Shown here one piece after another: positions 2,114 to 53,600 of a stretch of 64,000 nucleotides of DNA (within the stretch, counting starts at the first letter, position 1; the number at the start of each line of letters is the position of its first letter). The notes beneath the pieces are model-generated. The model worked only from the letters and a program-made list of their open reading frames with translations, was not told the origin of the DNA and did no database searches. The position numbers were made by a program, and so were the translations under genes. The DNA lies in contig CAJINV010000008.1 in the NCBI GenBank assembly GCA_905178155.1, positions 2,108,001-2,172,000 of the forward strand, written 5' to 3'. Origin of the DNA: Amoebophrya sp. A120 (lineage: Eukaryota > Protista > Dinoflagellata).

Positions 2114-5100
2114 ATGGCTCGGGTTGTCAGGTCTTTCCTGAGTTCGTGCCTGCTTGATGTCTTTGCTCCAGTTTGCTTTTTGTCAACCGAGGCGTTCCTC
2201 CGGGTGAGAAAATCCAGAACCACGGCGTCCACGGCAGCTACAACAACCCAAGAAGACACGGGGGCCACTGAAGAGACAACGCGAATAAATGGTGGCGGGT
2301 CCTCCAGAGAGCGCTCCGTCGTGTCGACGTCCCTCGCCGGGCAAAAGACGTCTTTCTTACGGCGCGGCAGGACAAGGGTGCGGCAAGAAGACGACTTGGA
2401 ACTACAGGTGGAGAGGTACGTTGACGCACAGGACGCAGCTGGAGGTGCCTCGGCTGACCGAGATGAAACGGGCGGCTTGAACCTCGATGATTGCAGTCGT
2501 GCAAAGGACAACGGAATAACAGACTTACAGGAGGGGGCGAACAGTTTCTTGAGTTTTGACGAACAAGAAAGTGTTGATGCTAGGTCGTCAAGCAACCTTC
2601 TTCAGGAAAAGGAACGCCAGCTAGAGGAAATAGTTCTCGATGAAAAGGACGAGGGCCCCAGCAGCCAAAGTACTGCACAGAGCCGGCTTTCTTCCGGGCT
2701 AATCAATGTGGAGCAGGGTGGACACGAAAAATCTGGGAAGGGGAGACGAGGAAAGGCCACAACTGCTGCGAAGATTTCCAGCGAAATGCTACCGCGTAAG
2801 GACGCCGGGGCAGCGTCTTCGTTTTTGCTCCGCGGGAAGGCGAGGACGTCTGGGAAGAAGACGGCGCGAGCCTTATTGATGAAAAAGTCACAGTTATTTG
2901 GTGGAAGAACGAAAGTAGAGTCACGCTCACGTCCTACAGGGGGAACAATTTCCGTGAAACAGGGAAACACGCGTCTTCGTGCCCGTGCGCAGCATGACCA
3001 GGTGGACGAAGAGGAGAGTGATTCTGATGCAGGCACCAGCACAACAGGAGAAGCGGTGGACGAGGCGGAAGTGAGACAAGCCGTCGAGGACGAAGTCGTG
3101 GTACAACAACCTGGAGCAGAGCCTAGTATGCAAGAAGAAAAAGCCGGAGCCGCAATTGGAAGTGCAACTCTGCAGACAGAGATGAACAAGAACAAGAAGA
3201 AGGTCAGCAACAGCATGTATTCACTTCTGCGAGCGGCACAGTCTCCGCACACGCTTTACTCCGACAAAGGTCTGACCGCGGACGAGCACCGGCGCTTCAC
3301 GGTGGAGCAACTGGATCTGGTGGAGGAGAAAGTCAAAGAGCTGAAAAAAGTGATCGAAGAGAGTATTCTGCTGTCGGACGGCGCAACTGGCTGCCGGAAG
3401 TCGCGTCGGAACGGGGCCTCCTCTGCTGCCCTAAGCCAGAAGAAGGACCTGTTGCGTACGAGCGGCTCGCTGGTGCCGCGGTTTGGGGGCAGTTGCGACG
3501 CGGCGGGGAGTGGTAGTACTAGTAGTTCCCCCGGCTGCATTTCCCTCGGGAACGGCTGGGCGGCGGCCGGGAATACGCCGTCGGGGAAAGCGCTCGCAGG
3601 AGCAACACTTGCGGCCAACACCGCGGTTGGCGGCGACTTCGGAAAAGCGGCGTTTTCGGAAGGGGATGACTACTTCACCGCCCAGAGAACTGGTCGGACC
3701 GGCAGCTTCTTCCCGCGGATCCAAGCGCGGTGGGCTACCGACGGAATCCACTACAGCAGCACCGGGGCGCGCATCGACGGAAATGGAAGGATCCACCGGG
3801 ACGAGCTCTTCAACGGGGGGGCTGATGACGTCGATGTTGCCGCGGACCTGGAAGACGAGAAAAATTTTGACGATTGCGTCGCTGCCAAAGTTGGGCGCAT
3901 GCTCGTCGGCCAGTTCGGTTCTTCGGGAGCTCAACACGGTAGTTCTTTCGAACAGATTGTGGCGAATTCGCTGCTGCAGGGCGGGACCTCCAGTGCAGCA
4001 GCTGCAGCTCAAAATGGCGTTGATGAAGCTTCCGCAGTGCAGCTGCCCTATGTTGCGTACGCAAGCTTTGGGCTCGCTACCACCGGGAGAGTGGTAGAGT
4101 GGCCGCAAGTCGACGTCGTGCAGCGAACAACAGCACCCGGAAGCACATCGACAGCAGGAGCGGCCGCCCGGAACGAGCTGAGAGCGGAGCTGCGCACCCT
4201 GGACGCCCGTCATGCCCCCTGGTACGAGGGATCGACCCGGAAGCGTGTGGGCAAAAACGTGGTCCTTGCGGTGGACTTCTCCGGGTCGATGAGAAAGGAT
4301 GGCAAGTGGGACACGGTCATTGCCGCGGTCCAGCAACTGCTGGACACGTTGTCGCCCTACGATCGGTTTGCAATTTTTCAGTGGTATCAGCCGTTCGCGC
4401 ACACAGGCGGCGCGAACCTCGCTTCCCTGGAACTAGTCCCAGCCACGCGGAGAAACGTCAACCTCGCGAAAAATTGGATCAGAGAACGGAGGCAGTCCGG
4501 GTACTCGGAAACCAGCAGGGCGCCCGGCGCGGCGTTCACCGGACTCGCGCTGGCGTCGGGGCTGGGCATTTTTCCGGCCGACGCGCGGAGTCGGTACCCC
4601 AAGCTGGTCGCTCCGCAGCAAGACTGCATCCGCGACGAGGACTTCTGTGGGGCGATGGTGCTGCTGATTACGGACGCAGAAAAGACGGACACGAATGGGT
4701 TCGCGGACCTCGCGGACACGGCCGGGCTGCTGAAGGAACTCTTTCCCGCGCGGTGGGGGATTACCCTGGCCGCCTACGTGATCTCCCCACACAACGAGGT
4801 GGACAGCTGGAGCGCGTTCAAGCAACTACTGCAAGGAAAAATCCCTCCTCCCCATATTGAAAAGGTACGTTTCCGAAAATTTGCGTTGCTGATTTGAGGT
4901 CACAAATCACATCTGTCTTGCAAGAAGACAAGGGCAGAAGCTTCCGCCCCATTATGGAAGCGATTTGTCATGCTGCTGGGCCTAAAGGGGAGCCGTTTGC
5001 AATGCTGAACAACTAGACCCACACGCCCCTACCTAGGCTGGGGATCTGGCCGCAATGCCTTCCTGCAGTACACAGCTGATTTGTGTACACAAATCCAGCA

Positions 5101-8100
5101 TCAGAAATTCCGTTTTGATATGGGGAGGGGGGATTTTTCCTTACGATAGCAACTGTCCGAGAACCACGGCGGTTCGCCGGTGCTGCTGGACTACGAGCAC
5201 GGCGGCAGTGCTATCCCAGAGAAAAAAGCTGGCAGGGCATATTTGTAATGCAAAAATAAATACACAGAAAAATTTGTCATGGGTGGCCCCATAGCATGCT
5301 GTTTCGGATACGCAATGCAGTTTTTTTTGTGTATTTATTTTTGCATTACAAATTTGCCCTGCCAGCTTTTTTCTGTGTGATAAGTGCCGCCGCGTCGGAC
5401 ATGGCCACCACCATTCTCGGCTACCAGAAGACGGCGGAGCGAAGGCTGATGCAGCAGGAGAAGGACGCCGCGGGCGTCAAGTGGGTGCGGTACCACGATC
5501 CCTTCACCGGGAGGGAGCGGCTGTCCGCGTGCACCAAGCTGTTCTCGACGGGGCCTTACGCGGAGGAGGAGGCGGCGCTGCGGGAGCTGAAGCACTACGC
5601 GGTGTTCTGCCTCGACGCGGCGCTCATTCTGCGCGAGCCGTTTGACGCGCGGCTGCGGTGTCTGCCGTTCTTGAAGACCGAGGTGGGCACGAGGGCAGAG
5701 CAGGGCATCACCGCCGCCTGCCCGGCGTACGATTTTCGCGAGGAGCGCTGCGCCGCCAACAGCAGGTATGGGGACGGTATTTGGAAAACTCGACAACCGA
5801 AATTTGACTGGAGACTGTCGGACTTCGACGGAGGGGACGACGTTTTGTTCGGTCCCACGGTCAATTTTGAGTATTTTGCAGATCGAACCCAGTACCTGCA
5901 GAGTCTCAGCAATGCCGATGACATTAGTGGAGGTGCTTCAGCTGTTGACCTCTTCGGAAGTGTGCGAATGAAAGGCGGCTTCAACCCTTTCGAGCAAGAG
6001 GAGGGTTGCACCACAACGACGACGACCACCACGACAACTACCACGACGACTATCGCGACGACCACCACTACGACGTCCACAACGACCACAACTACAACCA
6101 CCACCACAACAACCACCACAACAACCACCACAACAACCACCACAACAACAACCACCACAACAACCACCACAACAACCACCACGACAACCACCACAACAAC
6201 CACCACAACAACCACCACAACAACCATCACAACAACCACCACAACAACCACCACAACAACCACCACAACTACAACCACAACTACAACCACCACCACATCA
6301 ACTAGAACCACAACCACGACAACAACCACGACAACTACAACTACTACGAGTACAACCACCTCTACAACCACGACGACAACAACCACCACGACTGCGGCGG
6401 CGTTTATTATTGTTGACCCGACCAGCGTTCCATCCACTTCTTCTACGACGACCACGACTACGGAAGGACTTCTGCTAGCTCCAATTATGCCTGCCCCTCT
6501 TGCCGAGGACGATTGCTCGTTCCCCTGGATAATGCTCCTCGCATTCCTCACGGGCCTGCTCTGCTGCGCCGGGGGCGCGATGCTGCTGCTCCCAAGCAGC
6601 GAGCAGGGAGAAGATGTGTCCGCCGCAGCGGCAGGGGGAGGTGCTGGTGGTCTTCCTTCGCAACATGACGACAACCCGCGTCCAGAGCGAGATGACATGG
6701 TGTCTGGTGGTGGCTTCGGAACACCGGTGGACACCGTTCTTGCGTCGGACAAGACAAGCGCGAGCAAAGACGTAGATAGCTACACTGCACCACCTCTCGA
6801 CGACGTTGCCGAGCAACAGTTTGCCGAAGAGGACACGGACTTTGAAGTGTCGGACTCCGCGTCTGCAATGTCCTCCTCTGCGATGTCTTCCTCTGAGCCA
6901 AGCAGTGCGCCCTCCGCGCTGGGAACAAAGAGGGGCAAGCGGAAAAATAAAGGGAAGACAAAGGTCGCCGGTTCGGGAAAATTGAAAAAAGCGAAGACGA
7001 AAGGGAAGGGACCGGCGCCGGAAGGTGCGTCGTCGAGTGAAACTGCGGACCACAGTACGCCGGCTCCTTCTGACACTGACGGGGCAACAAGTGCCTCCTC
7101 CTTGGACGCGCGAACAAGGGCGAAAGTGCAGAAGAACAGAGAGGACAGGAGAAAAATCAAAGCACAAGAAGCCGACGGCGCAGCAAGCGACACAAGTGGC
7201 GCAACGTCTGCCGGTGAGAGCGGGGCTAGTGACAGTTCCACTGGGCACATTGGTGCGAAGCGGAGGCGGGTCCTCAAGAGGAAGAAAAAGTGGGTGCCGA
7301 AGAAGCAAGGTGGCACAACAACGACCTTAGACGAAGATGGAGCATCCAGCAGGAAAATCGTCGCGGCAAATGGGGACGGCGCTGACCTGGGCAATCTCGC
7401 GGAATCCGTCGAGGCTGTCATGTTTCTTCCCGACGGTGGTGCGCACGAGGGAGCAACCTCAAGGCGCCAGCAGGCAGCAGCGGCCGGCGCCGAGGCCCAA
7501 CTGAAGGTCCCGCGGCGCGGTACCACGCCAGTGCCTCTGGACGAGTTGAAGAAAACGCAAATTCCGAAAAGTCCACGGGAGAAAAACAAATCCGCAAAGA
7601 TGCTCCAGAAAGCGGCTTCGAAAGCAAAAAGTGATCTTCCGCGCCAGAGAAAGGACCGAGGAAGAGGTGATCCTGGCGAGTCGTCTGAGCAAAGCGCGTC
7701 GGAACGAGAAGACGTTGCAGGTACAAAGAAGAAATCGGTGAAGCCAGCGGGGACGACTCAGAAAACGAAAACGGCAAACTTCTTCGGATCAAAAAAGGGG
7801 GCCAGTGCCGGCGCCACAGCAGCACCTCCGGGCGGTGGGGGGCCCGCAGGGATCGTCACGCCGGCCATCACGGAGGCGCAGGTGATAACCGGCGTGGAGC
7901 AAACCGACGCGGAGCGGCTTCTGCGAAAGGTAGGAATTGCGAAGAACTACGCGAAAAAGCTCGCGAGACGGCTGGCGGACCCGGAGGCTGACTTGTTGGA
8001 TCAAGCTGGTGGCGTGGCTCCTTCCACCGAAAAGAGCCCGCACGACGCGAGGGCGTACAAAAATTTCCGCAAAAAGGAACAAGAAGCGAAGAGGAAGAAC

Positions 8101-13177: not shown

Positions 13178-16100
13178 ATGGTTGCTTCTTGTGCGCTGCC
13201 GTCCAGCGGCATCAAAATGCAAAATATTATACTTTTTTGAGTAGAACAGGATAAGAAGAAGCATGTCCGCGGCATGATAAAGTTTCCTCGGGACAACCTT
13301 CTCCGGGCAGAGGTCGTGCAAGAAGAGCTCGACGTCCAGGTGGTCCACTTGTGCTATGAGATCAGCCAGCAGCAGCTTCCCCCGACGCAGCAGCAGCTCG
13401 TGCAATTGCGCAGTTTACTGCGGGCCCATGCGGACCCGAGCGCACGGCGGATTTCCACCGACGCGCTGCACGCAGTTGCGTTCGAGCCGGACAGCGCCGA
13501 TGGACGGGTGGTGCCTACCGGAGTGCGCCTGGTAGAGCCGAGAGGTAGAAGGGCAACAGCATTTCCGCATGGACAGCGCCCAAGATCACCTGGAGGTCGT
13601 GGCGTCGCCGCCCGTCGCGTGAACACCATCGATTTTGGGGCCAAGTATTTGAAGCGCAACCCCGATTCGGTTCTGCAGGTGGAGAAAGAGGGACGGCTGC
13701 GGCAAGGGATTACGGCGGACATTCCCGCCGCAAACCGTGATTACCTCAATCGCAGTAATAAAACACCGCAGCAAAATAGAACTTCTACGCGGTTGTACGC
13801 CACGGCGTCGTTTTTGGAGACGCGCCAAAACCGGGATCCGTTGAGTCCCTTCGAGGAGCAGAGAAATCACAACCAGTTTGTGGCGAACCACCTGAAGCCA
13901 AGGAGCGGCCAGTCCTGCGTACACCTGCTGGCTGCGGCGGACAAGAACATCCTCGCCCTGGATCTGCTGCTGCGAGATAGTCCGCCGACCTATGATGTGG
14001 CTGCGGAAGGAGAGGGACGAGATCGAGGAGAGGGTGATGTTCGACAGAGCGCGTTGCCTTTTTTCCCCGATGACTTCGGCGACACACCGGTCATGGTTGC
14101 AGTGAAGAATAACGCTCTTCGCACCGCAAGGTTTCTGCTCGCTTTCGAGCACTATCCGGACATGATAAGTCAGGGAGGTAAAAATAAAAAGCTGCAGGAT
14201 GATGTTGACGTTCGAACGCGGCTTCGGAAAGCAGACGCAGAAGAAGAAAATCAGATGCTGATTAGAGACGATAGTAATAACTCTGCAAAGGATGATGCAA
14301 GAGCAGCAACTTCGTTTCTCGATTTTGTGAGTGCGGCGGGAGCTGTAGGACGAGAGGCGTTCGGTACATTATCTTCTACCCTGGAAGGTGGAGCTTCCCC
14401 TGCTGTTTCCCATTTTCCGAGCCTGTTTCTCTTCGGTATGGACGACCCGCATCACGCTGCCTTGCGCTGGACGCGCACCATGTACAGGCTTTTGGAGGCG
14501 GGACGGGAGGAGGGCGGGACGACGTCACACAGAGCTGCGAGAAGCGTTTCTGGAAGCGAGGAGAGCGATCTCGAGTCCGGAGAAGACGCTGCTTCGGACA
14601 AGTATGCTGTCGAATTGCAAGATGTTGAACAGGGAGTATCTGTAGGTCTCGACGCCAACGCGACTCGGGGCCTTCTCCAAGAGAAGACACTTTTGATCCT
14701 TATGTTTGCGAGTTGCCCGATGGACATGACGGGTTCGTCCACCGAGTTCCCTACGTTGGTGGGCCGGTTCCTTGCCTTCTGCGTTCAGACCAGAAGGAAT
14801 GAGCGGTTGCAGACGATGCTGGAAATTGTCAATTTTTTTCTCGACAACTCCGCTCCGGAGTGGCTGGATCCGGAGGTAGAAAAGCAATTGCGCTGCGCCA
14901 CAGGTGGGGCGCCGTCTCCTTCTTCCGCGGCTCAGCTCATGTTTACTAGCGTTTCGGGAGGTCTTCTACCTGGAGCCTTCTCTGGCAGCAGATTCCAACA
15001 GCTGCAAGCTTGTTTGCAGCAGAACCCGCGAGCGCTTTTTTTGGACGTTGTGTCTCGACATTCGCTCGCCTACCTGGCGGTCTCGCAGCTGAACGACAAG
15101 GACATTTACGAGGAAATTTTGCTCAAAAGCGCTCCAGCGTCGTTGCACGCTTTCCACCGGTTATCGGACAAATTGAAGGCGGAAGCGTTCAATTACGGTT
15201 TTTTGAAAGCGGTTTGTGAGGGCAACTACGAGAAGTTGAAACAGTTTTATTTTCACGAGGAGGCGCGGAACTCCGTGCAAGTGAAGCTCTTCGTCGACAG
15301 ACAGTTCGAGAATACGGCGCTGCACTGGGCCGCGCAAAACGACTTTCACGAACTGTGCGCCCACCTGTTGAAAAGTAGGTCCGATCCAATGAAGACCAAC
15401 AAGCAGGGCCAAATCCCCGCGGATCTAGCGCCGCAGAATTCCGCGCTGCGGCAGCAACTGTGGCGCGCGTTTGTCTTGGCCGCCGAAGTGGAGAAGGCGA
15501 AGGCTTCGACGTTGCTGGGCACCGACCTGACGGGCGCGTTGCAGATGGACAAAACATTCATCGAAACGTATGAAATCGACGTGGAACAAGTAGACCTTGA
15601 CCTTCTCGCGATGTCTTCAGCTGCCTCACCTGCAGGAGCACAACACAGTCGTGCAGCCGTGGAAGCTGCACGTAGTGGCCGCGATAGGACGACATCAACT
15701 ACATCTTCACCGAGGATCATGGAACCGATGATAACTCCCACCAGCAAGGGCGTGTTATACATTCAGATTCTGAACTGCAAGAACCTTCCGCGGGCGAGTA
15801 ATTTCAAAAGTCTTTTCGGCCTGGAGCCCGAGGAGCCCCGGTGCTACGTCGAGGTGATCGTGGACAGCAACAGGAAAAAGACGCTGCCGGCCTTGAACGG
15901 GCACAGCTGCGACCCCGTCTTCGAGACCACAAGTAAGTTTTCCGCCTTCCATATGGATGTGTCAGGATTGAAATCGACAAAGTTGAAATAATTTGTAATG
16001 CATAAAATGCATAACCCGAGGTACGTGTGTTGCAGAGCAGGCAAGTGAGGCCGACTGTAAGCCTGTTTGGGGTTACAGCTCGAGCTGCTAAAGTAGCATG

Positions 16101-17233
16101 AGAAAATCACTCTTCTTTGCCTAAACAGCACGACAAACTGGATTTAGAGACCGCCGAAATTTGTCATGCGCCACTTGGAAACTGGGTTCCAACTAGCATC
16201 CATTTTATGCATGACAACTTTTAGTACGCATGGGGTCTGCTTGTGGCTGCTGCTTCCTTATAGCAGTATGTCTGGTGGGCTCCTGCACAGTTTGTTGGCG
16301 CAATAAGTTGGTTCGTTGGCGAACGTTAAACGTATTCTGTTGGCAAAAAGTTGGGAATGTTGGCGAACAATAAACGCATCTGTTGGCGCAATGTAAGGAT
16401 CGTTGGCGAACGTTAAACGCATGTTGGCGATGTGAGGACTGTGTGCGAAAGTAAGGTAAAGGCGGCGTAAAGTTGGATGTGCCCGGGGATGATGGTGATG
16501 GCTTCGGTCCGCCTGACTCCGCGACCTGGTGGCCGAACCACGTGCGGTTCGGTGCCCTTACAGGTTGTGTAGTGGTTTCGGTCGGTTTAGCATGACAAAT
16601 TATTTCAACTTTGTCGATTTCAACTCTGACACATCCATATTCCAGTTCCCGTGTACCCCGGACACGACCGTGAAGCTGTTGGTCTTCCACCACGAAGGGG
16701 TGCTGTTTGGCGGCGACGACTTCATCGGGAGTTACTTCTTTCACCTGGGCCACGAACTGCACAAAACGCCGCAGATCGAGAAGCGCACCGGCGGTGGCGG
16801 GGGCTTAGTAGCTGCGAGCACCGCCACCAATGCAGCGGAGGAAATAAAAGCGACCGGGGTGACACTCACCAGAAGACTGGAAAAATTGCAATCTGACCAT
16901 TCTATCGCCGCCCTCGAACAACAAGCCGAGGAACTAGGCGACGCAGAAAATTATTCGAGACCCGAGGAGTTGTACGGCGGTCCTTCTAGTAGAAGAACAT
17001 CTACTGCCTCTGCCAACCGCTGGCCGCACTCCGGGAGGCCAGAAATCGAGTTTCGTGTGTCTTACGACCGCACGCAGCTGCAATCCACGACGAAGATGGT
17101 GGGGGTGAACCAAAACGCTTTGTCCGACCACGATACGCGGGATCCGTTCAATCACTCGTTCGAAAACTTTATGTTTCACTACGCGAAAGAGCCCGAATTC
17201 TTCAAGTACTTACCACGAAACCCGCTATTTTGA
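13178..17233 (+). CDS. Ankyrin-repeat and C2-domain protein; exons 13178-13212, 13276-15951, 16645-17233
   Basis: Ankyrin motifs GQSCVHLLA, GDTPVMVAV, NTALHWAAQN..GQIPADLA; C2 domain GVLYIQILNCKNL..CYVEV..DPVFE..AF|QFPC..VKLLVFHH..DDFIGS joined across an IR intron; first exon is less certain. Confidence 0.8.
15952..16644 (+). mobile_element. Non-canonical IR intron (introner) splitting the C2 domain
   Basis: ~50-bp IR TATGGATGTGTCAGGATTGAAATCGACAAAGTTGAAATAATTTG / CAAATTATTTCAACTTTGTCGATTTCAACTCTGACACATCCATA; DR TTCCA; 693 nt with in-frame stops; internal GTTGGCG-based tandem repeats ~16290-16432. Confidence 0.9.
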
Positions 17234-17955: not shown

Positions 17956-18606
17956 ATGGCGAAACCACCAAGCTCTTTTCCCCCCAAGATACCGTCCTCA
18001 CCCCCGTGGGGGCCTGCAATTGCGACCGCGCAGCGCCGCCCGGCTTTCTGTTGCGCGGGGGCGGAGCAGTGTGTACACATGTTGGGGTTGCCGTTTGCGT
18101 CACGACAAATTGGGACGGCTTGGGAAGTACTGGTTTTCTTCCTATTGTGTTCCGACTCGACGTGTTGAGCGTTGTGATGCGCGCACGTAAAAAATAAAAA
18201 TGTACTACTAACTAGCACCTGAGACGATAGAGCAGATAAGTGCGAAGTGCATGGGCATGATTCTATGATAGGCCTTTGATCATTGCTCATGCTCTACTTC
18301 AGTGAATGCACTGCAAAAACGAAAACAGGTGATGCAATGCATGCTCAAACGCGGTACTTGGTTTGTCTCTGGGTTACTCTCGTGATGATGCTATTTTTCG
18401 CCGACCTGGCGGAGAAGAAGGAGGCGGAGGAGCACGGTGCGGTAAGCGGCCACGTGCTTCTGGCCGCGTATGCAGTCCTCGTCATAGTGCACATCGGCGC
18501 GTATTTGTTAGCAGTTTTTCACATTCTGACCTGGGAACCACAACTGTACATGGCGGGGCGGAAAAATAGAAGCAAAGCCGTCGTAGGACCACCGCAGGGA
18601 GTTTGA
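17956..18606 (+). CDS. Small multi-pass membrane protein; exons 17956-18164, 18354-18606
   Basis: Two same-frame ORFs joined across a 189-nt intron with short IR TTGAGC/GCTCAA and DR ACGTG/ACGCG; 2-3 hydrophobic helices. Confidence 0.55.
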
Positions 18607-31051: not shown

Positions 31052-31096
31052 AATCATTATCATCATCATCATCATCATCATCATCATCGCTATCAT
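31052..31096. repeat. (ATC)n microsatellite
   Basis: catcatcatc run. Confidence 0.9.
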
Positions 31097-31549: not shown

Positions 31550-32692
31550 ATGAGCGAAGAATGCGTGACTTTTTCCGGAATTCCGTTTATCCTGGTCGGC
31601 GGACTTCCGAACGTGCTGCTTTTCGTAGCCCGGGGCGCGGACGACAGTCTGACGGTGTTCGAAACGTGGACAGAGCACGCGGGTTCGTTGCAGATCGGGA
31701 TCACGCTCGCTGTGGTGGCTCGCTTGCTGGTTAACACCGCGATTATTCTGAACCAGCGGGGGCAGCAGTTTCGACGCGTGGACACGCTTCGCCAAGCGAC
31801 CTTCGAGCAGGACAAGGCTCGCAATGAACAGTGGCGCACGCGTCGGCTCGCGGCCCGCCTGGCGCTGCAGGGACGTTCGTCCGTGAAGATCGGGAAATCG
31901 GTGACGCAGCCGAAGGTTGACGTAAAATCGCCGACCGCGGTCGGGGGCAACGCGTCCCCGAAGTACGCGGGGAACTACAAGGAAAACCGCGCGGGGCAGC
32001 TGATTTTCGAACAAGAGAGGGACTGGGAGGAGTTTCAGGAGGACTTTTCACAGCGGCAGGAAGAGTTTGAGAAATCCGACAAGTACGACTGCGACTCCTT
32101 CTTCCTGCTCGGTCTCCTGCTCTGGTTTTTGGCGGAAGTGGTCGCCTTGTTTCTGCTGCTCACGGATTCCTCCGAGGGCTCCTTCTATCGTACGAAAAAA
32201 GTGTTTCACTGTAAAGATTTTGCAAGTTTTGCATCACAAGACAAGTTTGTTCTACATCACAGAGAAAATTTGCCATGCGAGATACCTAAGGGAAAACACA
32301 GCTAAAAACCCACTGTCTTGCATGTGTAGCAAGACAAATACTTCTCAGATACATTTTCTGCATCACAAGTTCACAGTGAAACAGTTTTTTCTTGCGATAC
32401 CTTCCGCGTCACGGTACACGCCGGGAATCTGGGGCTCGCCACCTGGAATTTCTTCCATTTGAAGACCGTCGTGCAGGACAAGGCCACCTCGGAGGGAAAA
32501 ACCTGTTGCGTCGCCTGCTCGGGGTGCCACAGCCTGGTTCTGTTCGTTCTCGCCTGCCTGCTCATCGGCAGCTCCGTGGCGTTCGCGGAGTGGCTAGCGC
32601 TCGGGTTCCAATTGGCCATTTGGCTCTGCACGGGATTGACGTTTTTCGGGACCGACGCGAGAGAGAGCGAGCTGAGAAATCAACGCCGGTGA
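31550..32692 (+). CDS. Multi-pass membrane protein of unknown function; exons 31550-32185, 32405-32692
   Basis: Several hydrophobic helices; frame joins SEGSF|RVTVHAGNLGLATWNFFHLKTVVQ across an introner. Confidence 0.7.
32186..32404 (+). mobile_element. Non-canonical IR intron (introner)
   Basis: IR TATCGTACGAAAAAAGTGTTTCACTGT / ACAGTGAAACAGTTTTTTCTTGCGATA; DR CCTTC. Confidence 0.9.
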
Positions 32693-32894
32693 GGATCTTA
32701 GTCTATTAGTGCTGGATCTTCTCGTCCATGAAAAATATCTCCCGTCCACCACCGGTCTCCGACACGACATGACCTCCAGCTCGTTCGTGTTCGTGTCACC
32801 AGTATCAATGTATATAGACGATAAAGAACGTCGCGCCAAATAAGGGTAAGACTAGGAACAAAAGCGCGTTTCCAGCAACCACGAATTCGGTATC

Positions 32895-38800: not shown

Positions 38801-40968
38801 CAGTAGCACAAGCAGAGCAGCAGATGCTTCTTTTACGGAGGGGCAAGAAGGAGAGGCCGGTGTGAGGACAGAAACAAGTGTGAAGAAACGAGGAAGGGTA
38901 AAGAAGAAAGCAAGCAAGGGACAATTTGTGCCTGTAGCAGCAGAAGGAGTTGCGCAGGACGAAGCCTCGGACTTGGAAGATGCGGCGGAACAAGCTGAAC
39001 GTGTAGCGGTGAAAGCAGTTGATCTCCAACTTCCTGATGGGCATCAAGCCACTTTCGTTCCGCCTGTAGATGATAATCGACAATCGCGACCCAACGAGTC
39101 ACCACTGCAGCTTGAGGTCGCACCAAAGGCAGTACGGTTTTCCGAGAGGGTCGTGTCTAATGTAGATACGACCACTACTTCTGCGATAGCGATAGTTTCT
39201 ATCGCAGCCGCAGCAAATGAAGATGCAGCAGATCATACAAAACTGCTGCCCGCTGAGATACCGCAACTGCGCGCTGCAACCGGAGGTGAAATAAAAACCG
39301 TCCTAGATGTTACTAGATCTCCCACCGCTAGTACTGACGAGTTTTTGCCGGCGCCGGCGCGCGACAAATTTGGCAGGGTCACTGAGTCCTCCGTCGACCC
39401 TGACCAGGGTGATGCAGAAGATTCTCTCCCCATGAAGGAGCCGGCAGACTCCCAGATCGTGGACAACTGGAAGACGGTTTTTTTGTCACTGAAAAACCGG
39501 TTCATCTCCAGCCAGACCGACGAACAGCAAGGCACGGAAACCATCTTGTCCACGTTTCTGCAGAACGACGCAAATGTGGCGAAAGTGATCCGCAAATTGA
39601 CGCCGAACCCCTACTAACCATTGCAAAACTTCTTGTTGTACTATCGTCCTCGTATGGAGGCTATGGATATGTACGAAACTTGCAGTCTTGGATGGCAGAT
39701 CTCCTGTTTCGTGGTCTGAAACTGCATCACATCAAGCGTCGTTGTTTCTTTTGAGCAAATTTGTCATGCGCGTTATACTAGGCCTAGGGCGAAGATAGCC
39801 ACAACACTTTTGCAATGCATGCCTGCCAGCAACACGGAACGGTGAACAGCATTATGGGGTGGCGTGGGAAGGAGCGCATCGACGCGATCAGCGAGGACTG
39901 CGAAGAGACTATCCCAGGCGGCAAAACCTCCTCACCAGTTCTCAAATGTCGAGTAGTTTTCGTGAAGATTTATTGTTGAGTTCACTGAATAGTACTTCTC
40001 CACAAATAATCACGAGGCAGCTGCCTTGTGATCTGAGCCTTCTGTTCATAGTGTAGTCGCAAGCAGTCCGTAAAAATCAAAATCAATATGCCTGGAAGAT
40101 CGCAGGGCCATGATTTCTCCTCCTTCTGCCGACTAGACAGGATGAGGACAAAAATTCTACCTCCGTGAGAAGGAACTGCCTACGGTCCAGTAAGTAATTT
40201 GTTGGGAAAGGGTATGGATGTTCGTGCAATTTGCATGGCTAAGGCTAGAAGCGACTGGGGAGATGGTTTTTACGCAGGATAGACAAACTGAACGACTTGG
40301 AGAAGTTGAAGAAAAAATTGGACTTAAAGTTCGTTGCGAAAGTCGATAACAACTACCTGCAATTTATTCACTGCAATGATGTCATCGGGAGTTCACGGCA
40401 GACTTGAAAAAGAGTTGTCAAGTTTGCAGTTGTGCTGGCCTAGCGAGGTTCCGAAGTCTCTACTCCACTCCACGAATGGGGAGCGTGAAAGCCTTTGCCT
40501 TAATAGATGCAGATTGGGTTTGTCTTCCACAGGCACGTTAGACATCATGGGATAAAGCTTCAGAAGCTTCTACATGTGCATGGTTATGCGTGCCTGTACT
40601 TCTTCTCCTGGATTCTCTTTGCCCTTCACGCATTATTTTCCAGACGGCCCAGATGACAAGATTTGCAGTTGATACCGTTCTTGCAGCAGCAAAAGGAGAA
40701 AATGCAAAAAAAGGAACAGGAAAAGAAGTCCGCGACCGCAAAAGCTGCAGCAGCAAATAGTCGGGAGAGCGGACCACGGCCTAGCGCAAATTCGTCAGAG
40801 GTTGGAGGCGTCGCGGTGGTGAAAGGGGAGCGGAAGAAGGAGCAGCCGTTGGCGACCCACCCGGCGGCGATAGACGAGGTGATTCGACGCGCGTTGCGGA
40901 GACGCGATAGGCGGCGAGAGAAAGTAAGGGATATGAAAAATTCTTCCGACGAGGAGAATTCGTCGTAA
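32895..40968 (+). CDS. Very large charged/coiled-coil protein of unknown function; exons 32895-33180, 33597-37636, 37893-39614, 39827-..., final exon ending ~40968 (3' exons tentative)
   Basis: ORFs 32895, 33617 and 37824 fuse in frame after removing introners (QEMA|VLAATERMRK; AAKM|EEGAIL; NPY|QQHGTV). Confidence 0.7.
33181..33596 (+). mobile_element. Introner, family TATCAAATGCAAAAATGTCTGGGTCTGG
   Basis: IR with ..GACCCAGACCACATGTTTGCATTTTATA; DR GGCAG; 416 nt corrects the frame. Confidence 0.88.
37637..37892 (+). mobile_element. Introner, same family as 33181 and 50227
   Basis: TATCGAATGCAAAAATGTCTGGGTCTGGAAG / CTTCCAGACCCAGACATTTTTACACTTGATA; DR AAATG; 256 nt corrects the frame. Confidence 0.92.
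39615..39826 (+). other. Degenerate IR intron
   Basis: IR CATTGCAAAA/TTTTGCAATG; DR CCTAC/CCTGC; contains the apparent stop of ORF 37824. Confidence 0.6.
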
Positions 40969-42411: not shown

Positions 42412-42520
42412 ACCTCCAGTGAATGACAATGTTGAGAAGCAGCACAAATAGGATGCTGATGCTTGGGCTCCGCAGCTTAAAAGTCCCAGGTTCTTGGACA
42501 GTTCGAAGTGACAAGGCGGC

Positions 42521-44463: not shown

Positions 44464-44634
44464 GTTTTGAGTTGATTTAGTTTTTTTTGTCCTCTTGATC
44501 AGAGAGTTGGTACGCAGTGGCACAAGAGGAGATCGAGCTGCTGTGTGATTTTTTCAGAAGACTCATGCGATCCCTCTATAAAAAAACGCCCGCAACAAAC
44601 ATTGTAGAAGATCGCGACCCACGATCAGAAGTTT

Positions 44635-47600
44635 ATGAGTCTGTTGGCACTCATTATGTCCTTACTGTCTAGATTGGTAGCTCTTTATCACGAAGGATCT
44701 TTCACTTGGTATCCTCGACGATCTGTGCAATTTTTTTCGATCTTTTTTTTAAGCCTCGGTAGAAGTAAGTCCCATTTTACAGCATCACGAAGATTGTTCT
44801 TTCTTCATCGACTTCGTCAAGTTCGTTCGCCGCACGAAAGCATCGGGGGGAAGACTTCGTCGCTCCCTGTATTGGTCCTTTTCAGCATTCTTGTGTTTCT
44901 TCTTGTTTCTTCTTGTTGGTCTCCTCCACCCGCCTTTCACACTGCCGCAGCTGCTGTGCCCTTTCTCGAGGAACTTTTGGTCGACGAGGAATTCCGTGCG
45001 TTTCAAGATGACGAGATCACCTATATCCCGTGTAAAAACATCCCCACCCCCAGAGTTGTCATGCAATTCTGCATGCCGAAAAAGTTTCTCATGCGGAGCC
45101 CTATGAGAAGCATTATCTAGTCGTGTTTTGGCATTTGCGATGCTAGAATCAGCATGGTGCGCTAGATCTGTGATGCTTCTGAACTAGCTAAACAGGACTA
45201 CGCTACGAGGACAGACTTGTCATGCCAAACAACGAAAGCTGGCTGATTTGTCTAGCAGATTTCCCATCTTGACTCTGGTCTGGGGGCGTTTTTAATCAGG
45301 ATAACCTACAGGCGCGAGATAAAACTTTCGGACGTCCTCGCCGCACCCGACCCGCAGTCGCTGCCCAAGCGCCTGCTTCCGCACGCAACCACCTTCGGCG
45401 AAGATGTGAGAACGCGAGAAGAGCCGTTTCTGCAGCTTGCTTCGGAGGAGAGAAACCGGCTGGAAGATCATGATTTTTCCAACGGAGGCACAAAACCTTT
45501 CTCCCCGGAGGAGGGGCACCTTGCTGCAACTAAAGGACCTCCAGCAGCTTCTGTGCTGATTACCACGCTGGCGGATGATCCCAAAAAGGTAAAAAGCACA
45601 TCTACACGCACCAGCACGACCCGACCGACCGCTCCAATAGGCGGACCAGAACATGATGACCCGGCAAATGAGCATAGTCCCTCGGCCGCCGTGTGCCCCG
45701 CACTATCCCAGCAGGAGAAGCGAGCACTCTGTCGGGAATACGCCTTCTTGCTGTTCGGCGGCTTGGCAAAGAAGAAGGGCAAAACGTCCATGGCGTTTCA
45801 GAAGAACGAGGACGGCGGCGGCATCGTCGAGGGAGCCGACGCTGAGGGATTCGTGGATGCCGCGCTCGCGCGGAACGCCTACGAACTGCACGTCTTCCGC
45901 GCCAACCAAGGGCGCGATCGGTACCCTGCGTAAAAACGTGCCCACAACTTGAGACTTGTCATGCATACTATGTATTTGTAAGTGCTTGCTGTACTGCTCA
46001 AATTATGTTTCTCAATCTCATGCGCGGCCCCAACATAAGACGCCCAGCACTTAAATGCTGTTTCGGAGTTTGTTCTGTTGCTAGAAGTGGGATAAGATGG
46101 AGGTCGATCTAATATGATGCGCCAACACTAGCTACACACAAGCACACTTATTGTGCTGACCCAAGCGCAACAACTACAAGTACAACTTCCCTGTTGGTTT
46201 GGCGAGCGAAGTCGGCATCTTCCTTCTGCTGTGGGTACTACGTTTTTACGCAGGATAACCGGTTCGATGTTTTCATCCACAACTGGGCCCTGGCCGCCCG
46301 CGAGAAGCTGCGCCGCCTGTACAAGCCCGTCGCCAGTGTGTTCGAGCAGAACGCGAACCGGAAAATCGAAATCACGCGTCGCATCTGGCCGTACGGGCAG
46401 CGGAAGTGCTACAAGGGCGACTACTTCTGCATCCTTGCCCAGGTGTCCATGAGTCTGTCCGTGCGGGAAGTGGTGAACTTGATGCTGGTGTACGAGGCGA
46501 GAATGCAGCCGTTGCGGCGCAACTGTGGCTGCAAATCCGACAGGTACGAGTACGTCATGGTGACGCGGGCCGACATGCTCAAGTACCAGATGAACCTGAT
46601 CTTCCCGAACACCTACCCCACCAGCCTCGTCAGCTCGGTGTCTCACACCGGCGACCACCACTGGGTGTTACCCGGGAGCGGCTACGCGGCGCGGCTGCGC
46701 AGCGCCTTTGACTACAGGTGGCAGGTGCTGCACGGGCGGGATTTTGACGAGGACAAGTTCTTCAGCTTCTGGCACCGCGGCAAGTTGCTCAGGAACATCG
46801 AGCAGCTGCGGGCGTACAGCGAAAACAGCGAGAAAATGGTCGAAGAGTGGAGGGTGGAAGACGACGCGGATTTCCGTCGCATGTTTGACAAGATGGACGC
46901 GGAAGAGCTCGCAAGAAAGAAAAGAGTCTGGAACGCCTTGATTGTTCCCGACCGCAAAACCGCGCAGGGCTTTCAGCTCCTGGGCGAGTCAGACCGGTGG
47001 GTCCAGAGCCACCAGGTATCCAAGTGCATCACTCGGCGACGTGGTCCTTCTTCTGAACATTTGTCCGGGTCGTGGTCGTGTTTGCAAAATACTGTAGAAG
47101 TCGTGCTGCTCCTGCGCGAGTTTTTATCAACCCTCATCTATGTCTACCGCGACTGAGTGTGCATGACAAGAAGCTATCTTTGAAAGGTTCCACAAAAGGA
47201 GCATGGATGTGTGTTTGTACTTACTATCGCAGAAGGTGCTGCTACTTTTTGGTTTTCGTTTTCATCAGTACGTGCTGATCTTCACTTATCTGCTTCTTGT
47301 TTTCATTTCAACGCGGCCATTGATCATACGCTGACGCTGATCGCAAATGGGGGGGAGGAGGAACAAAAACAGTCGCACTCTGATACCAGGAAGACGCGGC
47401 GCATAGCACGATCGTGACGCAGGAAAGTCTGAAGCTTTTCGAGTCCACGCAGTATTTTCACAACCTCAAGTCCCGGTTTCGGCCGATCTTGTTGCCCGGT
47501 GTGGACAAGAAAAACCTGATCTGGCATATAACCCGCTCAGGTGTTACAATCTCAAACGTTACAATAAAACATGGAAATCTGTGATGCAAGAGTGCATGAT

Positions 47601-50600
47601 CTAGCCTCTTCCCACAGGATTACGCATGACAAGTTTCGGAGCTTCAAGCCGCACTACAATCTGGCGAAATTTGTATTGCAGAAAGTGGAACGCTCTCCGA
47701 GTCTGTCATGCTCCTCATGCAATACAAAGCCCAGATTCTATTGTAACGTTTGAGATTGTAACGTTTGAGCAGGTCATGTGGCACATCCGGTACTGGCTGG
47801 CGTCTTCTTCCTGGTTCGCGGAGTATATCCGCTTCGTATCATATTGCAAGAAAAAAGTGTTACAGATACACATTGTGTTGCAAGACCGGCAACACAGACA
47901 ACCTGTCTCATGCAGGAAAGGCTTGCGAGCCTCGTTTCCTTCCTGTTTTCCATTATGATCTTTGCAGTACAAGTTTTCTCTGCCACAAAGAGAAAATCTG
48001 TGATGCAGAAACTCCAACACATGTGTAACTGTAGCGCTTTTTTCTCGTGATATGTCAAACTGGAAAGTGCCCCGCCCCGCCAGATGGGCGGATTCAGTAC
48101 GTACATTGCAAAGTTACTGCATCAACTACATGGAAATAATCTGTACATAAGAGAAGAACGCGACTCAGTTTATTCGTTTCAGAATCGATGAGCAAGCGCG
48201 CAAGTGTTCCGTTGCGGAAGTAAGTTCGCAACGCGAAGTTTTCCCATTGCGGTCTATCAGGGGCGCTTTGCGGGCCGATAGTTCAACGTCACGTACGGCC
48301 ACTGGCCGGCCCAAGACCTCGTCTGCGACCAGAATAGCTTGGGGCTGCACCACGTGTACGCGACCGTCCCCCCGATGCACTGGCGCGACACTGCGTACTA
48401 TCCCAAGAAAAGACTGTTTTGCAGGCAAGACACGACGCTGTTGCAGATTTACTTTCAGCCGAGGTGACGTAAGCTAAGGCAAAAAAACCGAAACAGACAC
48501 ATCTGAAGGTACAGGGTCTTGAGCACCACGTTGCGCAGGAGGACATGGCTGTTCCGTCTTCCTCGTGTGTACTATTTCTCCAATTTCGCATAGATAGCGC
48601 GACTGTGACAACTCTTTGTCTTCGCATACCGGCCTGGGAATGGCGTACCGGCACTGGAGGGAAGTGAACGTGCACAAGGTCGACGGTTACGAAGACACAG
48701 ATGTGTACTCGCCACTGAAACACTATGGCGACGCAATCTATTTCAGCTCCCAATTATTTCAAATTTTGCCACCTCAACTTTAAAATTAATATAGCTCTAT
48801 GAAGTTGGTGCCTTTTTTGTTTGAGAAATAGACAGCGTATCGGGTGCTTTTGCATGAACTAGCCTCATTCACCAAAGACTGCAGGCCCTGCTCCGGAGAC
48901 CTGTTGCTCCGGCCTTTTATTTGTCTTTTTGCCGCCTCAAGTGACCCCCTCTTGGACCCCCGGCCTTCCCGGACCCCCCTGATAGCCGCCAAAAAGCCGT
49001 ACTGGTTTGGCAAGCCATGCCAGCGAGGGAAGGGGATTTCTACCCCCCTCCGGTAAACCACTTTACGACCCCCCTTCAAGCACCCCCCTGAAGGAGGGCC
49101 CCCAGCCCCATCTTTTTGCCTTGCTTGTTCGACAGCGCAGGACCAGACAACTTTTGTGAATTTCGCTAAGCTGCCCTGCAAAGAATCGAGCTACTGGAAA
49201 GTCACGCCGTTGCGACACAAATCAGGTGCCTGAAGTAACTACTCAGAGCTGAGGCCACAAAATTTGAAATAGTTGGAGGCTGAAATAGTTTGCGTCGCCA
49301 TAAACACCACGAGGACCAGCTTTTCGCGGCGGGGATCCGCAGCGGCAATTATGGCGTTGTGCTGCGTGGGCGCGGCGAGGGCATGGAGGAAATGGAGTGC
49401 TACGCAGAGTTCGAGGAGGACCAGACGCACCCGGGGAAGCTTCAGGTGAAGACGCTGCCCACGACGACTCCTACCGAAGGAAGTGAACAACGAGCTCCCC
49501 TTGCGTCGTCGGCGCAAGTTGGTGGAGGAACCGCAGGAGGTGCCGTGAGGGGCACGAGGAAAACGAATCCTTCGATGAAATTGTTCGACCAAAGGTTGTG
49601 GCCGAGGCTGACGTCGCTGCAGAAGCTGCATCTCCTGGAGACCTGCCGGAGGGTCCGGGGTGGGGCGGCGACCAATTTTTACCGAAGCGAGGATGTTGAG
49701 GACCTCCCTGAGAGGACTAACGGCGAGTCCTTCGCCTCGGAGACGTTTTGGTTCGAGGACGCTTCTGCCGAGTCTGCGGAAGCTTTGTTTGCCCGCATTG
49801 CCCGGATGGAGAAGGCCCCGGGTAGCGATTTCGGTGCGCAGGAACTCTCGGAAACGTTCCAGAAGTGGAGGATTTTGCTTGAAAAGGTGATCCGGCGGCT
49901 AAACAATCCCAATGCGTTCAGGCACGAGCAACGGGAGCAAGCAGAGGACCTCTCTAAGAATACAGCCGCACCATCTCGTAGCGCAGAAGGAGCAGTAGAA
50001 CAAGAACCAGCTCGGCCAGCGGACAACCCCTCGGCGATGAAGGCCAGTCGGGCGTCGTCTACGTCGCCTGCCCCCCCGGAATCCGAAGTGCAAGTCTTGC
50101 AGCCTGCTGCACCCGAACTCCTGTATTTGCATCCGGAGCAGCAGTTTTTTCGCATCCAGCTGGACCTAGATGCTGCGATCGAGGCCTCGGACGAACACAA
50201 GCAAGATTTTGCGCGCATCCGGTTCCTATCAAATGCAAAAATGTCTGGGTCTGGGAAATTGCGAGATTACTATCTAAACTGCAGCAGCTGGTAAAAAATG
50301 CATGCGAGGGGTATGTTCGGGGGTATGTTCGGGGGTGTGTCAGGGGTATGCAAATGCTCCTCAATCACGGGCGGACTACAATTTTTTGCCGAAAAACCAA
50401 CAGGTGGGGTATAAACATACCCCAGACATACCCCAGACACACCCCAGACACACCCCAGACAGACCCCCGAACATACCCCAGGCAAAAAGTCCGAACACAC
50501 CCCAGACACACCCCGGACATACCCCGGGCAGACTTTCGGACACACCCCGGACAGAATTTTTGACACACCCCGGACAAACTTTCGGATTTTGTCATGTGAG

Positions 50601-53600
50601 GGTTGACCCGAGGTCCAGTCTGTCACGCGAGACCGTGCGGCCAAGGGGCGAAAGCCCTAGGGCAGCGCGGGGACTCTGTCCCCGCGTCATGCCCTAGGGG
50701 CCAGCTGGGAGCGCTTTCCGGACACCGCGCGGCCAAGGGGCGAAAGCCCTAGGCCAGCGCGGGGACTCGGTCCCCGCGTCATGGCCTAGGGGCCAACTGT
50801 GGGCGTTTCCTTTCCCGGACACCGTGCGGCCAAGGGGCGAAAGCCCTAGGCCAGCGCGGGGACTCGGTCCCCGCGTCGTGTTGGCCTAGGGGCCAGCTGT
50901 GAGTGCTTCCCGGACACCGTGTGGCCAAGGGACGAAAGCCCTAGGCCAGCGCGGGGACTCGGTCCCCGCGTCATGGCCTAGGGAGTCCCCGCGTCATGGC
51001 CTAGGGGCCAGCCGTGAGCGCTTCCCGGACACCTTGCGGCCAAGGGGCGAAAGCCCTAGGCCAGCGCGGGGACTCGGTCCCCGCGTCATGGCCTAGGGGC
51101 CAGCTGGGAGCGTTTCCCGGACACCGTGCGGCCAAGGGGCGAAAGCCTTGGGCCAGCGCGGGGGCCCGGTCCCCGGGTCATGGCCTAGGGTTCAGTTCTG
51201 GGCGCTTCCCGGACAGCGTGCGGCCAAGGGGCGAAAGCCCTAGGCCAGCGCGGGGACTCGGCCCCCGCGTCAATCATGGCCTAGGGGCCAGCGGTGAGCG
51301 CTTCCCGGACACCGTGCGGCCAAGGGGCGAAAGCCCTAGGCCAGCGCCGGGACTCTGTCCCCGCGCCATGGCCTAGGGGCCAGCTTTGAGCGCCTCCGGG
51401 GCAGCCGGCGACCAAGGGGCGAAAGCCCTAGGCCAGCGCGGGGACTCGGTCCCCGCGTCATGGCCTAGGGGCCAGCTGGTGGCGCTTCCCGGAAACCGCG
51501 TGGCCAAGGGGCGAAAGCCCTAGGCCAGCGCGGGGACTCGGTCCCCGCGTCATGGCCTAGGGGCCAGCTTGGAGCGCTTCCCGGACACCGTGCGGGCAAG
51601 GGCGGGGCGAAAGCCCTAGGCCAGCGCGGGGGCTCGGTCCCCACGTCATGGCCTAGGGTTCAGCTCCGGGCGCTTCCCGGACAGCGTGTGGCCAAGAGGC
51701 GAAAGCCCTAGGCCAGCGCGGGGACTTGGTCCCCGCGTCATGGCCTAGGGGCCAGCGGTGAGCGCATCCCGGACACCGTGCGGCCAAGGGGCGAAAGCCC
51801 TAGGCCAGCGCCGGGACTCTGTCCCCGCGCCATGCATGGCCTAGGGGCCAGTTGTAGGCGCTTCCCGGACAGCGTGCCACCAAGGGGCGAAAGCCCTAGG
51901 CCAGCGCGGGGACTCTCTCGGCCCCCGCGTCATGGCCTAGGGGCCAGCTGTGAGCGCTTCGCTCCCGGGCACCGTGCGGCCGAGGGGCGTGCGAAAGCCC
52001 TAGGCCAGCGCCGGGACTCGGCCCCCGCGTCATGGCCTAGGGGCCAGCTGGGGGCGCTTCCCGGAAGCCGCGTGGCCAAGGGACGAAAGCCCTAGGCCAG
52101 CATGGGGACCCGGTCCCCGTGTCACGGCCTAGGGGCCAGGTGTGGGCGTTTCCCGGACACCGTGTGGCCAAGATAGGGACGAAAGCCCTAGGCCAGCATG
52201 GGGACTCGGTCCCCGTGTCANATAGGGACGAAAGCCCTAGGCCAGCATGGGGACTCGGTCCCCGTGTCATGGCCTAGGGGCCAGGTGTGGGCGTTTCCCG
52301 GACACCGTGTGGCCAAGGTAGAAGCGAAAGCCCTAGGCCAGCGCGGGGACTCGGTCCCCGCGTCATGGCCTAGGGGCCAGCCTTGAGCGCTCCCCGGACA
52401 CCGTGCGCCCAAGGGGCGAAAGCCCGAGGCCAGCGCGGGGACTCGGTCCCCGCGTCATGGCCGAGGGGCCAGCTGGGGGCGCTTCCCGGACACCGCGCGG
52501 CCAAGGGGCGAAAGCCCTAGGCCAGCGCGGGGACTCGGTCCCCGCGTCATGGCCTAGGGGCTAGCTACGAACACTCCCCGGACTGACACCACACCGCGCG
52601 GCCAAGGAAGGGCGGGACGAAGATAGAAAAGCCCTAGGGCGGTGTGGGGCTCTGTCGCCGCGTCATGACCTGGGGCGGGGCCGGCTCCAGGCCCGGCGCC
52701 AGTTTCTTCTTTTCTTTTATCTTTGCGCGCGGCAGGCTAATGAATCTAGTGCGCGCAAGCAGGGGAGCCGCGTCCGCAGGCCCGTCGCGGGTCAGGGAAT
52801 GCAAGGCGCACCGAAATACCTAGCACTAGCTGCAGGCGACCTGCCTGCCCAGTGTCACCGCGCAGACAAATGCCGGAAGGTCGCCGCACGGGGACTCTGT
52901 CCCCGTGCTCGGACCTTGTTTGTCATGCAGATTTTTCATGATCCATGCCGTCTGGAATGCAGGACCTAGCATGACAGATTCTGTGAGACCCCTATCATGC
53001 CTATCCTGCATGAGAAACCTCCTCCCAACTTGGTCAAAAGTGGACAACTTTTGGCATTCGTGCGACACAGATTTTCGCACGAGCCAGAATTAGCATTACA
53101 TTTACAAGCGGCGGAGGTCTGGGGTGAATATGAGAAGGCGCTGCGGGACGCACTAGACCAGAAGTGGCCCCAAGAGCGGAAGGGTCCAGGAAAGCCCTGG
53201 ATTTCCGAGCACACGTGGACGCTCATCCAGAAGCGCAGCAAGAAAAACACCCGGGAGGGGCTAACGAAAGCGGAGCAGCGAGAACTGGCGAAGGCAGTGA
53301 AGCAGGCAGTCCGGGCAGACAAGAAGCGCTGGGTGGCCGACAAGCTCGAGGAGCTCAAAAAAGCGGAAAACAGAGGGGACGCGCGCGCAACCTTCGAGGT
53401 CGTGAGGCAGTTAGCAGGGCGGAGCAGAAAGGGGCAGCCGGACAGGCTCCCGGGAGGCAACGCCAAGCACGTCGAGTTTTGGCGCTCAATTTTTGGCGTG
53501 CCGAGGCCGGAGCCGGCTCAGGAGCTAAAGGAGACCGAAACGTGGAAGGAGTGTGAAAAGGAATTCAACAGCAACAACGCGCGACCGCCGTGGGAGCAAG

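Follow-up and report, generated by a model that had tools for sequence, protein, structure and literature searches.

Helically phased TGT[ACG]ATGC arrays in Amoebophrya introners as putative binding sites for a mobilizing machinery

How can one short word recur inside introns whose sequences otherwise differ, and what might read it? The question is raised by a 64,000-nucleotide stretch of the Amoebophrya sp. A120 genome (assembly GCA_905178155.1, contig CAJINV010000008.1, positions 2,108,001 to 2,172,000, hereafter the window), in which short, AT-richer inserts break up plus-strand genes. A first-pass annotation made from the sequence alone had noticed the word TTGT[ACG]ATG, in both orientations, inside such inserts, and proposed a common cis-element bound by one trans-acting factor, a transposase or a non-canonical splicing factor, that would recognize families whose terminal inverted repeats (TIRs) share nothing else. 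The word bears on how introners move and are spliced in A120. Established here are the motif (sharpened to TGT[ACG]ATGC) and its tolerated variants, its distances from element termini, its helical phasing, its conservation within families and its indifference to the direction of transcription. The phased arrays probably serve as double-stranded DNA binding sites for the machinery that mobilizes introners, most likely an integrase-type transposase or a dedicated partner of one.

Splicing was read from the contigs of four runs presumed to be RNA, all from one sample, in which the inserts are skipped; two further raw RNA runs placed 9 and 3 reads on the window and were uninformative. Nineteen contig joints cross window inserts and only three have GT-AG borders, splicing of the elements being mostly at non-canonical junctions. 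At 17 of the 19 joints the contig skips 5 bases more than the length of a TAT-like...ATA element, and splicing thus takes out the element together with one copy of a 5-bp target site duplication (TSD). The claim that the TIRs share nothing else does not hold, because the window elements have in common both TAT...ATA ends and the 5-bp TSD, and in most families an A-rich stretch at positions 11–15 of the TIR (a few, beginning TATGG, lack the A-run). Two GT-AG introns, 23462-23670 (71% like a family consensus) and 47011-47384, are decayed TAT elements, so canonical introns here can arise from introners.

At all 17 places where the annotation had put the word, TTGT[ACG]ATG was found within 1 base, and the pattern as first written occurs 17 times on the plus and 12 times on the minus strand of the window, a frequency that Markov models of order 0–4 do not explain. 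De novo counting in window introns placed TGTCATGC, TGTGATGC and TGTAATGC within the top five 8-mers, and the core was therefore defined as TGT[ACG]ATGC; it has 39 copies (23 plus, 16 minus) and is matched by 15 of the 17 originally listed words, those at 5274 and 50588 being without the final C. TGTTATGC occurs once in the window. Fifteen core copies lie in 7.16 kb of RNA-shown intron (dinucleotide shuffles: mean 1.13, maximum 5 in 1000) and 18 in 3.79 kb of TIR-predicted elements, against none in 29.7 kb of exon, 2 in 13.3 kb of intergenic or unclassified DNA and 1 in 9.3 kb of retroelement inserts, with three copies at 52915-53110 excluded from the count because that piece had been picked by its motifs. 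The rarity in exons that had been judged by eye is thus borne out, and intergenic DNA does not reach the density of introns. The core is absent from a TIR element at ~955-1860, a repeat at 11.9-12.4 kb, a tandem array and a copia-like piece, and present once each in a repeat at 43.6-44.5 kb and in a reverse transcriptase element.

Sequences flanking the copies are unrelated (mean identity 26.6%). The core is present in 9 of the 19 RNA-shown introns and absent from 10, and 4 have no site even by the loose pattern. Window elements with a family match carry a mean of 2.3 core sites (23 in 10), those without 0.6 (11 in 19). Two of the listed copies (18173 and 47161) sit in GT-AG introns; the intron around 47161 is at the same time a TAT element.

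A larger sample came from scanning metagenome contigs with the TIR of one family, that of the element at 33181..33591, which returned at least 128 loci, all from one assembly (46 of 64 parts scanned). With overlaps removed these make 689 kb, of which 78 pieces of at least 1.5 kb (661 kb) were analyzed, a sample enriched for the seed family. An SNF2 open reading frame (ORF) in locus L006 has its best named match in Amoebophrya sp. A25 (55%), and element families are common to the window and these loci at 71–91% identity. Here TGTCATGC is the top 8-mer, with 1058 copies against 64 expected under an order-3 model, while T at core position 4 is at the background level (26 vs 17). The core admits the substitutions G2>C, T3>C and A5>T, its positions 6–8 are fixed, and the flanks lean to aaYY before the core and not-C after it.

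The related loci contain 384 elements (median 262 bp) whose ends match and whose 5-bp TSD is exact, where chance would give about 5. Inverted-repeat (IR) pairs taken without bias number 104 at a 5-bp TSD and at most 5 at 4, 6, 7 or 8 bp, and 102 of the 104 start TAT/TAT. Being short, multi-copy, bounded by TIR and TSD and without coding capacity, the elements resemble transposable elements of the miniature inverted-repeat kind (MITEs). They fall into 57 clusters, 18 of which have two or more copies; each of these 18 family consensuses has at least one core site, and all but the shortest (2) have at least three loose sites. Two or more sites are found in 17 of the 18, and the remaining one has a site at either end. 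Core density is 12.1 per kb in element families, 0.09 in long ORFs and 0.43 elsewhere. The family termini read TAT[CG], and positions 16–32 of the TIR differ (30% identity among 11 TIR types). Given their common ends, the families are, contrary to the annotation, not unrelated; the TAT-ended families look like one superfamily.

Two side observations concern these elements. In many TIR types a family-specific 6-bp word stands twice in tandem at positions 16–32 (L001-L079; window 33196-33212 and 47857-47872) and could be a candidate family-specific recognition module beside the shared motif; its lag-6 identity of 0.45 vs 0.26 (p 5e-4, 11 TIR types) is to be read with caution, since a control segment had a lag-7 signal. 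Flanks are clearly non-coding on both sides in only 9 of 377 scorable elements (coding context 204, ambiguous 164; L001-L079), and introner insertion or retention may favor exons.

The word is conserved while its surroundings drift. Across the 12 largest families, 5.0% of the cells in core-site columns depart from the consensus, compared with 22.6% in the interior. On trees of the nine largest families, internal branches carry 3.5 core changes per 1000 cells against 37.9 in the interior and 38.9 at the free fourth position, and terminal branches carry 24.6 against 77.6, so that core changes are 11-fold rarer than interior changes on internal branches and 3-fold rarer on terminal ones (odds ratio 3.4, p 3e-10). 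Such a strong depletion on internal branches is what one would see if a copy had to keep its array intact in order to leave descendants. The proposal of a common cis-element for a trans-acting factor is strengthened accordingly, as the word lies in unrelated flanks, is selected within families and drifts freely at its fourth position; that one factor reads it we infer, and the binder is putative.

The sites also follow a spacing grammar. Almost no core site falls in the first 32 bp of an element; sites begin 33–34, 41–45 or 53–56 bp from the terminus. Of 28 distinct family ends, 17 have their first inward site at 33–34, 42–45 or 53–56 bp (phased at 10.5 bp with Rayleigh R 0.88, p 5e-5), and the other 11 have no site within 60 bp. 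Of 103 same-strand pairs, 27 are 31–33 bp apart (null mean 3.2, maximum 11 in 5000), as are 15 of 56 when only core sites are counted (null 1.7), and the same-strand spacings left after this class is removed are still periodic (p 4e-4). Opposed sites cluster at 15–16, 44–49, 58, 67–68, 99, 141 and 183 bp, near 15 + 10.5n. The best period is 10.45–10.55 bp in each of three distance classes; the coherence of whole arrays peaks at 229 at 10.5 bp, drops to −11 at 11.0 bp (null maximum 108 in 3000) and persists after nearest partners are removed. A period of 10.5 bp is the pitch of B-form DNA. The 29 elements of the window also peak at 10.5 bp on their own (p 3e-4), their families overlapping with those of the related loci. 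Within families, spacing deviations are mostly 0 or 1 base, and no steps of 10–11 bp were found. The notion that the TIR is a degenerate outer copy of the word was rejected as fitting just a few families: only 1 of 28 ends scored above threshold, though register 3 gave the best mean score.

Transcription direction leaves no mark on the arrays. Coding strands were predicted with a codon model that had learned from the exons of the window; of the 375 elements that could be scored it assigned 204 (within-locus agreement 180 of 187), and in these 204 the core sites are 303 sense to 292 antisense, with 38 elements sense-only, 32 antisense-only and 9 without sites; these counts rest on predicted coding strands, splicing being shown for the window. 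One family with all six sites on one strand has inserted 12:13 in the two orientations. Spliced introns of the window occur with only antisense sites (37637), with only sense sites (45922) or with none (4/19). Of the two candidate factors put forward by the annotation, the one acting at the level of DNA transposition is favored by the 10.5-bp phasing, the fixed distances from the terminus and the absence of strand bias, and a single-stranded splicing signal or small nuclear RNA (snRNA) pairing is disfavored.

A mechanism consistent with these properties can be sketched. Protomers would line up on a single face of the helix, commonly at three-turn intervals and in either orientation, and the array would bend or organize an element of 110–320 bp so that its two TAT ends meet. 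The paired ends would then be cut and inserted with a 5-bp stagger, and copies with broken arrays would stop spreading. After insertion the intron (element plus one duplication) would still be removed from RNA while its sites decay. The binder may be either a transposase or a host protein, and the array may have a role after insertion besides mobility. The shared phased word would gather many families as clients of one machine and provide bait for the missing protein, the array being a signature by which to find autonomous copies and to estimate the age of elements; it also suggests that mobility signals (the array) are separable from splicing signals (the paired ends).

Several observations weigh against the arrays being sites for a mobilizing transposase or its partner. 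Pfam searches of 256 of the 311 longest related-locus ORFs (at least 170 aa) and of 13 window ORFs found no transposase or integrase domain. A120 is described as holding ~30,000 introners in ~1,950 families with no detected transposase and no detected U1, and the available text argues against general mobilization by transposases (Farhat et al., PMC7789003). A young element with perfect ends (48724-49302) lacks the core site. The divergence of TIR positions 16–32 could mean family-specific transposases together with a host binder, and in Mos1 short elements transpose without extra help in bending (PMC2642840). Phasing is weak in unclustered singleton elements (p 0.023, best period 10.9 bp). The 15-bp offset applied to reverse sites comes from these very data and some families share arms, which makes the coherence p-values optimistic; the same-strand and first-site tests are independent of that offset. 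Finally, once opportunity is corrected for, the core has 2–3-fold fewer singleton (private) changes than the interior, which may reflect unsampled parent lineages or alignment noise and also fits constraint after insertion.

No autonomous element was found in the 0.66 Mb of related loci, where four long elements hold unrelated insertions or no transposase ORF. A seed-family element in locus L038 (476-2934) has a 1.9-kb insertion with a 415-aa ORF that belongs to no Pfam family. The seed-family TIR was not found in viral contigs. Nine viral matches to a generic pattern of an end plus two sites were set down to chance, none being surrounded by a TAT element that bears the motif and whose ends and TSD match; three weak, kilobase-long IR/TSD pairs surround viral pattern matches in the AT-rich L136.

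Instead, a chromatin or architectural protein of the host might bind the array on DNA, and the array would have its main value after insertion: the mark would direct the element to co-transcriptional, non-canonical splicing or to silencing, and insertions bearing it would be tolerated and persist. DNA phasing and strand indifference fit this equally well, as do a single word common to families with different TIR cores, the depletion of private changes and the reported failure to detect U1 snRNA and transposases in A120 (PMC7789003). However, the introns without a site, or without a core, are spliced all the same, and old elements without a family match average fewer core sites than family-matched ones. 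The depletion of changes is far stronger on internal branches, changes that break a site are frequent among copies within coding sequence (256 of 7022 cells), and the distances are fixed to the DNA terminus. A comparison of intronic with non-genic copies has 9 non-coding copies only. We regard such a host-chromatin role as an appreciable, though minor, possibility. A further reading, in which one host-encoded DNA-binding factor wraps all families, mobilizes them without any element-encoded transposase and flags them on chromatin for U1-independent, junction-blind splicing, seems doubtful; if true, transposition and splicing would be tied together by an intron mark written in DNA.

A passive origin, with the word a relic of one ancestral element built of ~32-bp subterminal repeats and bound by nothing today, is improbable. 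It would account for ends and TSD length being common to all families, for alternating opposite-strand distances of 15 and 17 bp that sum to 32, and for single-linkage BLAST joining 310 of the 384 elements with the motif masked. Yet flanks are unrelated and only 5 pairs among the 18 motif-masked consensuses align; the phases step by single turns (33, 43, 54; 47, 58, 68) and not only by multiples of 32. Unless it is an alignment artifact, the 11-fold deficit of core changes on internal branches, next to a drifting fourth base, contradicts a relic.

It is very unlikely that the word acts in RNA, whether as a splicing-factor site, by snRNA pairing or through stems of opposed copies. The copies do sit in introns, and those opposed at 15–16 bp could form short hairpins, in which the fourth base matches in 46 of 101 pairs, slightly above the expected fraction of 0.36. 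Perfect stems, however, form in just 21 of these 101, and the match is at chance in the other opposed distance classes (42/131, 17/53, 24/65). The period is 10.5 and not 11, and the central base is free to be A, C or G, as a fixed pairing partner would not allow. Against a single-stranded RNA signal, which is unlikely, stand also the parity of sense and antisense copies, the independence of opposed copies from each other and the 4 of 19 spliced introns that carry no site. Least of all can the word be laid to the composition of CATG/TGCA-rich, CpG-poor introns (CATG and TGCA are 2–4-fold denser in introns than exons; CpG observed/expected ~0.84 vs 1.10), a hardly credible origin given that Markov orders up to 4 and shuffles leave the counts unexplained, TGTTATGC is not enriched and composition yields no spacing grammar.

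The individual elements of the window are collected in Table 1.

Table 1. Introns and elements of the window, with positions of the word (strand in parentheses) and contig evidence.
Feature	Position	TSD	Sites	Remarks
TAT-type TIR element	4827..5148	GCAAC	4882, 4914, 4966, 4998 (+; two 32-bp pairs); 5098 (-)	breaks an ORF; classed by TIR and TSD
TIR element	5212..5382	AGTGC	core 33 bp from each end, 5244 (+), 5343 (-); loose site 5312 (-)	
TIR element	15952..16639	TTCCA	43 bp from each end, 15994 (+), 16590 (-); 16026, 16162 (+); 16096, 16209 (-)	further genomic copies shown by loose ends in contigs
GT-AG intron without TIR (+)	18127..18328		one core, 18173	joint 18126>18329 in 4/4 runs
Spliced TAT element (negative case)	21209..21451		none	joint 21207>21456
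Spliced decayed TAT element (negative case)	22420..23045		none	joint 22417>23049
Spliced decayed element	27517..28063		core 27741 (+), 27656-27663 (-)	
Spliced decayed element	28652..29075		core 28824 (+)	
TIR element	32186..32399	CCTTC	32360 (33 bp from right end), 32329, 32231 (-); 32271, 32314 (+)	
TIR element	33181..33591	GGCAG	33221 (41 bp in), 33252, 33306, 33345 (+); 33361, 33539 (-)	
Spliced element, 33181 family in opposite orientation	37637..37887	AAATG	37683, 37755, 37809, 37840 (all four antisense)	joint 37630>37887
Spliced element	39615..39821		core 39762 (+), 39724 (-)	
Spliced TAT element (negative case)	39910..40281		none	joint 39907>40285
Spliced TAT element (negative case)	40365..40674		none	joint 40362>40678
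TIR element	45024..45303	ACCTA	five, all (+): 45057, 45087, 45136, 45169, 45218	RNA contig piece begins at 45304
Spliced element	45922..46257		core 45957 (36 bp in)	contig pieces 45304-45918 and 46260-47010 adjacent
GT-AG intron = TAT element	47017..47385	CCAGG	core 47161 (-)	
Spliced element	47527..47778	TGGCA	47580 (54 bp in), 47672, 47704 (+); 47624, 47719 (-)	
Element nested in spliced element 47837-48280	47842..48052		47874 (33 bp in), 47906, 47999 (+); 47889 (-)	
Young spliced TAT element	48724..49302	AACAC (perfect)	no core site (exception)	IR 15/16
33181-family copy split by nested insertions	50227..58612		core 52921 (+), 52969, 53093 (-)	interior resumes ~52919; other copies run from 50268 directly into motif (contig loose end)

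Beside these, the window holds repeats of other kinds. The TIR element at 955-1860, with 49-bp arms and an apparent TAA duplication, which we take to be Harbinger/Tourist-like, is without the motif and serves as a negative control. A deleted copia-like piece at 24882-26090, so read from its translation (no Pfam match), has short direct repeats and lies inside a 2.18-kb spliced element; joints 24928>26553 and 24739>26434 are also seen. Intergenic palindromic and tandem repeats at 11880-12440 and 43600-44470 bear no relation to the TAT elements. The insertions at 50269-52914 and 53111-58569 are nested in one intronic element and include a GC-rich tandem array, like one in locus L033, and an element resembling non-long-terminal-repeat retroelements with an RVT_1 ORF at 52970-55411; an RNA contig leaves the exon at 50227 and runs past 50500, suggesting an intron of ~8.4 kb. 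Elements starting TATGGCG (48724-49302 and 21209-21451) lack the core motif though one is young, and are possibly a sub-lineage with another word. A single 80% match between L066 (1659-2195) and window 4827-5382 takes in two elements along with the intervening 62-bp exon; it stems from an orthologous locus or else from a composite element. An Rfam search of the window gave no match.

The elements agree with the introners already described from A120, with their TAT, ~7 variable bases and A-run, 5-bp direct repeats and non-canonical junctions (Farhat et al. 2021, PMC7789003; Gozashti et al. 2025, PMC12130899), and the tabulated lengths of ~107, 149, 209, 234, 252–260, 278, 305 and 321 bp match family lengths here (PMC12130899). 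The internal motif and its helical phasing are, by contrast, not described for A120 introners in the available text of these two papers. Nor is the motif mentioned in the available parts of a review (PMC11282704) and a preprint (10.1101/2020.10.14.339549), and the motif words are absent from the text of three Amoebophrya introner papers; no description for Amoebophrya was found in literature text, while figures (Farhat S19, S25), the appendix of PMC9860276 and subscription papers could hold one.

As to superfamily, all but two of the 58 A120 rows (one Ginger, one Mutator) are entered as 'Unknown' in PMC12130899. The TA..TA termini resemble those of IS3EU/GingerRoot, whose TSD, unlike the 5-bp one here, is usually 6 bp (PMC10045372, PMC6839031); a 5-bp TSD is found in TDD-4/5 (PMC10045372, PMC6839031, PMC2836005), and Ginger1/Ginger2 have TGTNR rather than TAT[CG] termini (PMC2836005). 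For one A120 family, fam38, the PMC12130899 supplement gives the annotation 'Ginger, 5-bp TSD, TA/TA termini', and the available main text describes it as without the expected Ginger termini. The elements are here placed in neither the IS3EU/GingerRoot nor the Ginger superfamily.

The arrays themselves recall the subterminal repeats of MITEs and DNA transposons, short words that stand within the TIRs on either strand and differ in number and layout from element to element, and like these they repeat a short word at defined positions inside the ends; in Emigrant/Lemi1 the transposase binds such repeats cooperatively, with hAT, CACTA and Sleeping Beauty cited as further cases (PMC1636448). Here, unlike there, one word runs across families with different TIR cores, runs along the whole interior and is phased over ~200 bp. 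A 5-bp TSD is also made by Tn7 and Mu. The ends of Tn7-like elements and CRISPR-associated transposons (CAST) carry several TnsB sites each, at a fixed distance from the terminus and spaced by helical pitch (PMC10201428), much as in these introners; Tn7/CAST are, however, bacterial, with TG termini, longer sites and known autonomous genes, and the likeness is an analogy only. Elements of this type and subterminal binding repeats are thus both known, and what appears to be new in these introners is a phased array that spans the whole element and is shared among families.

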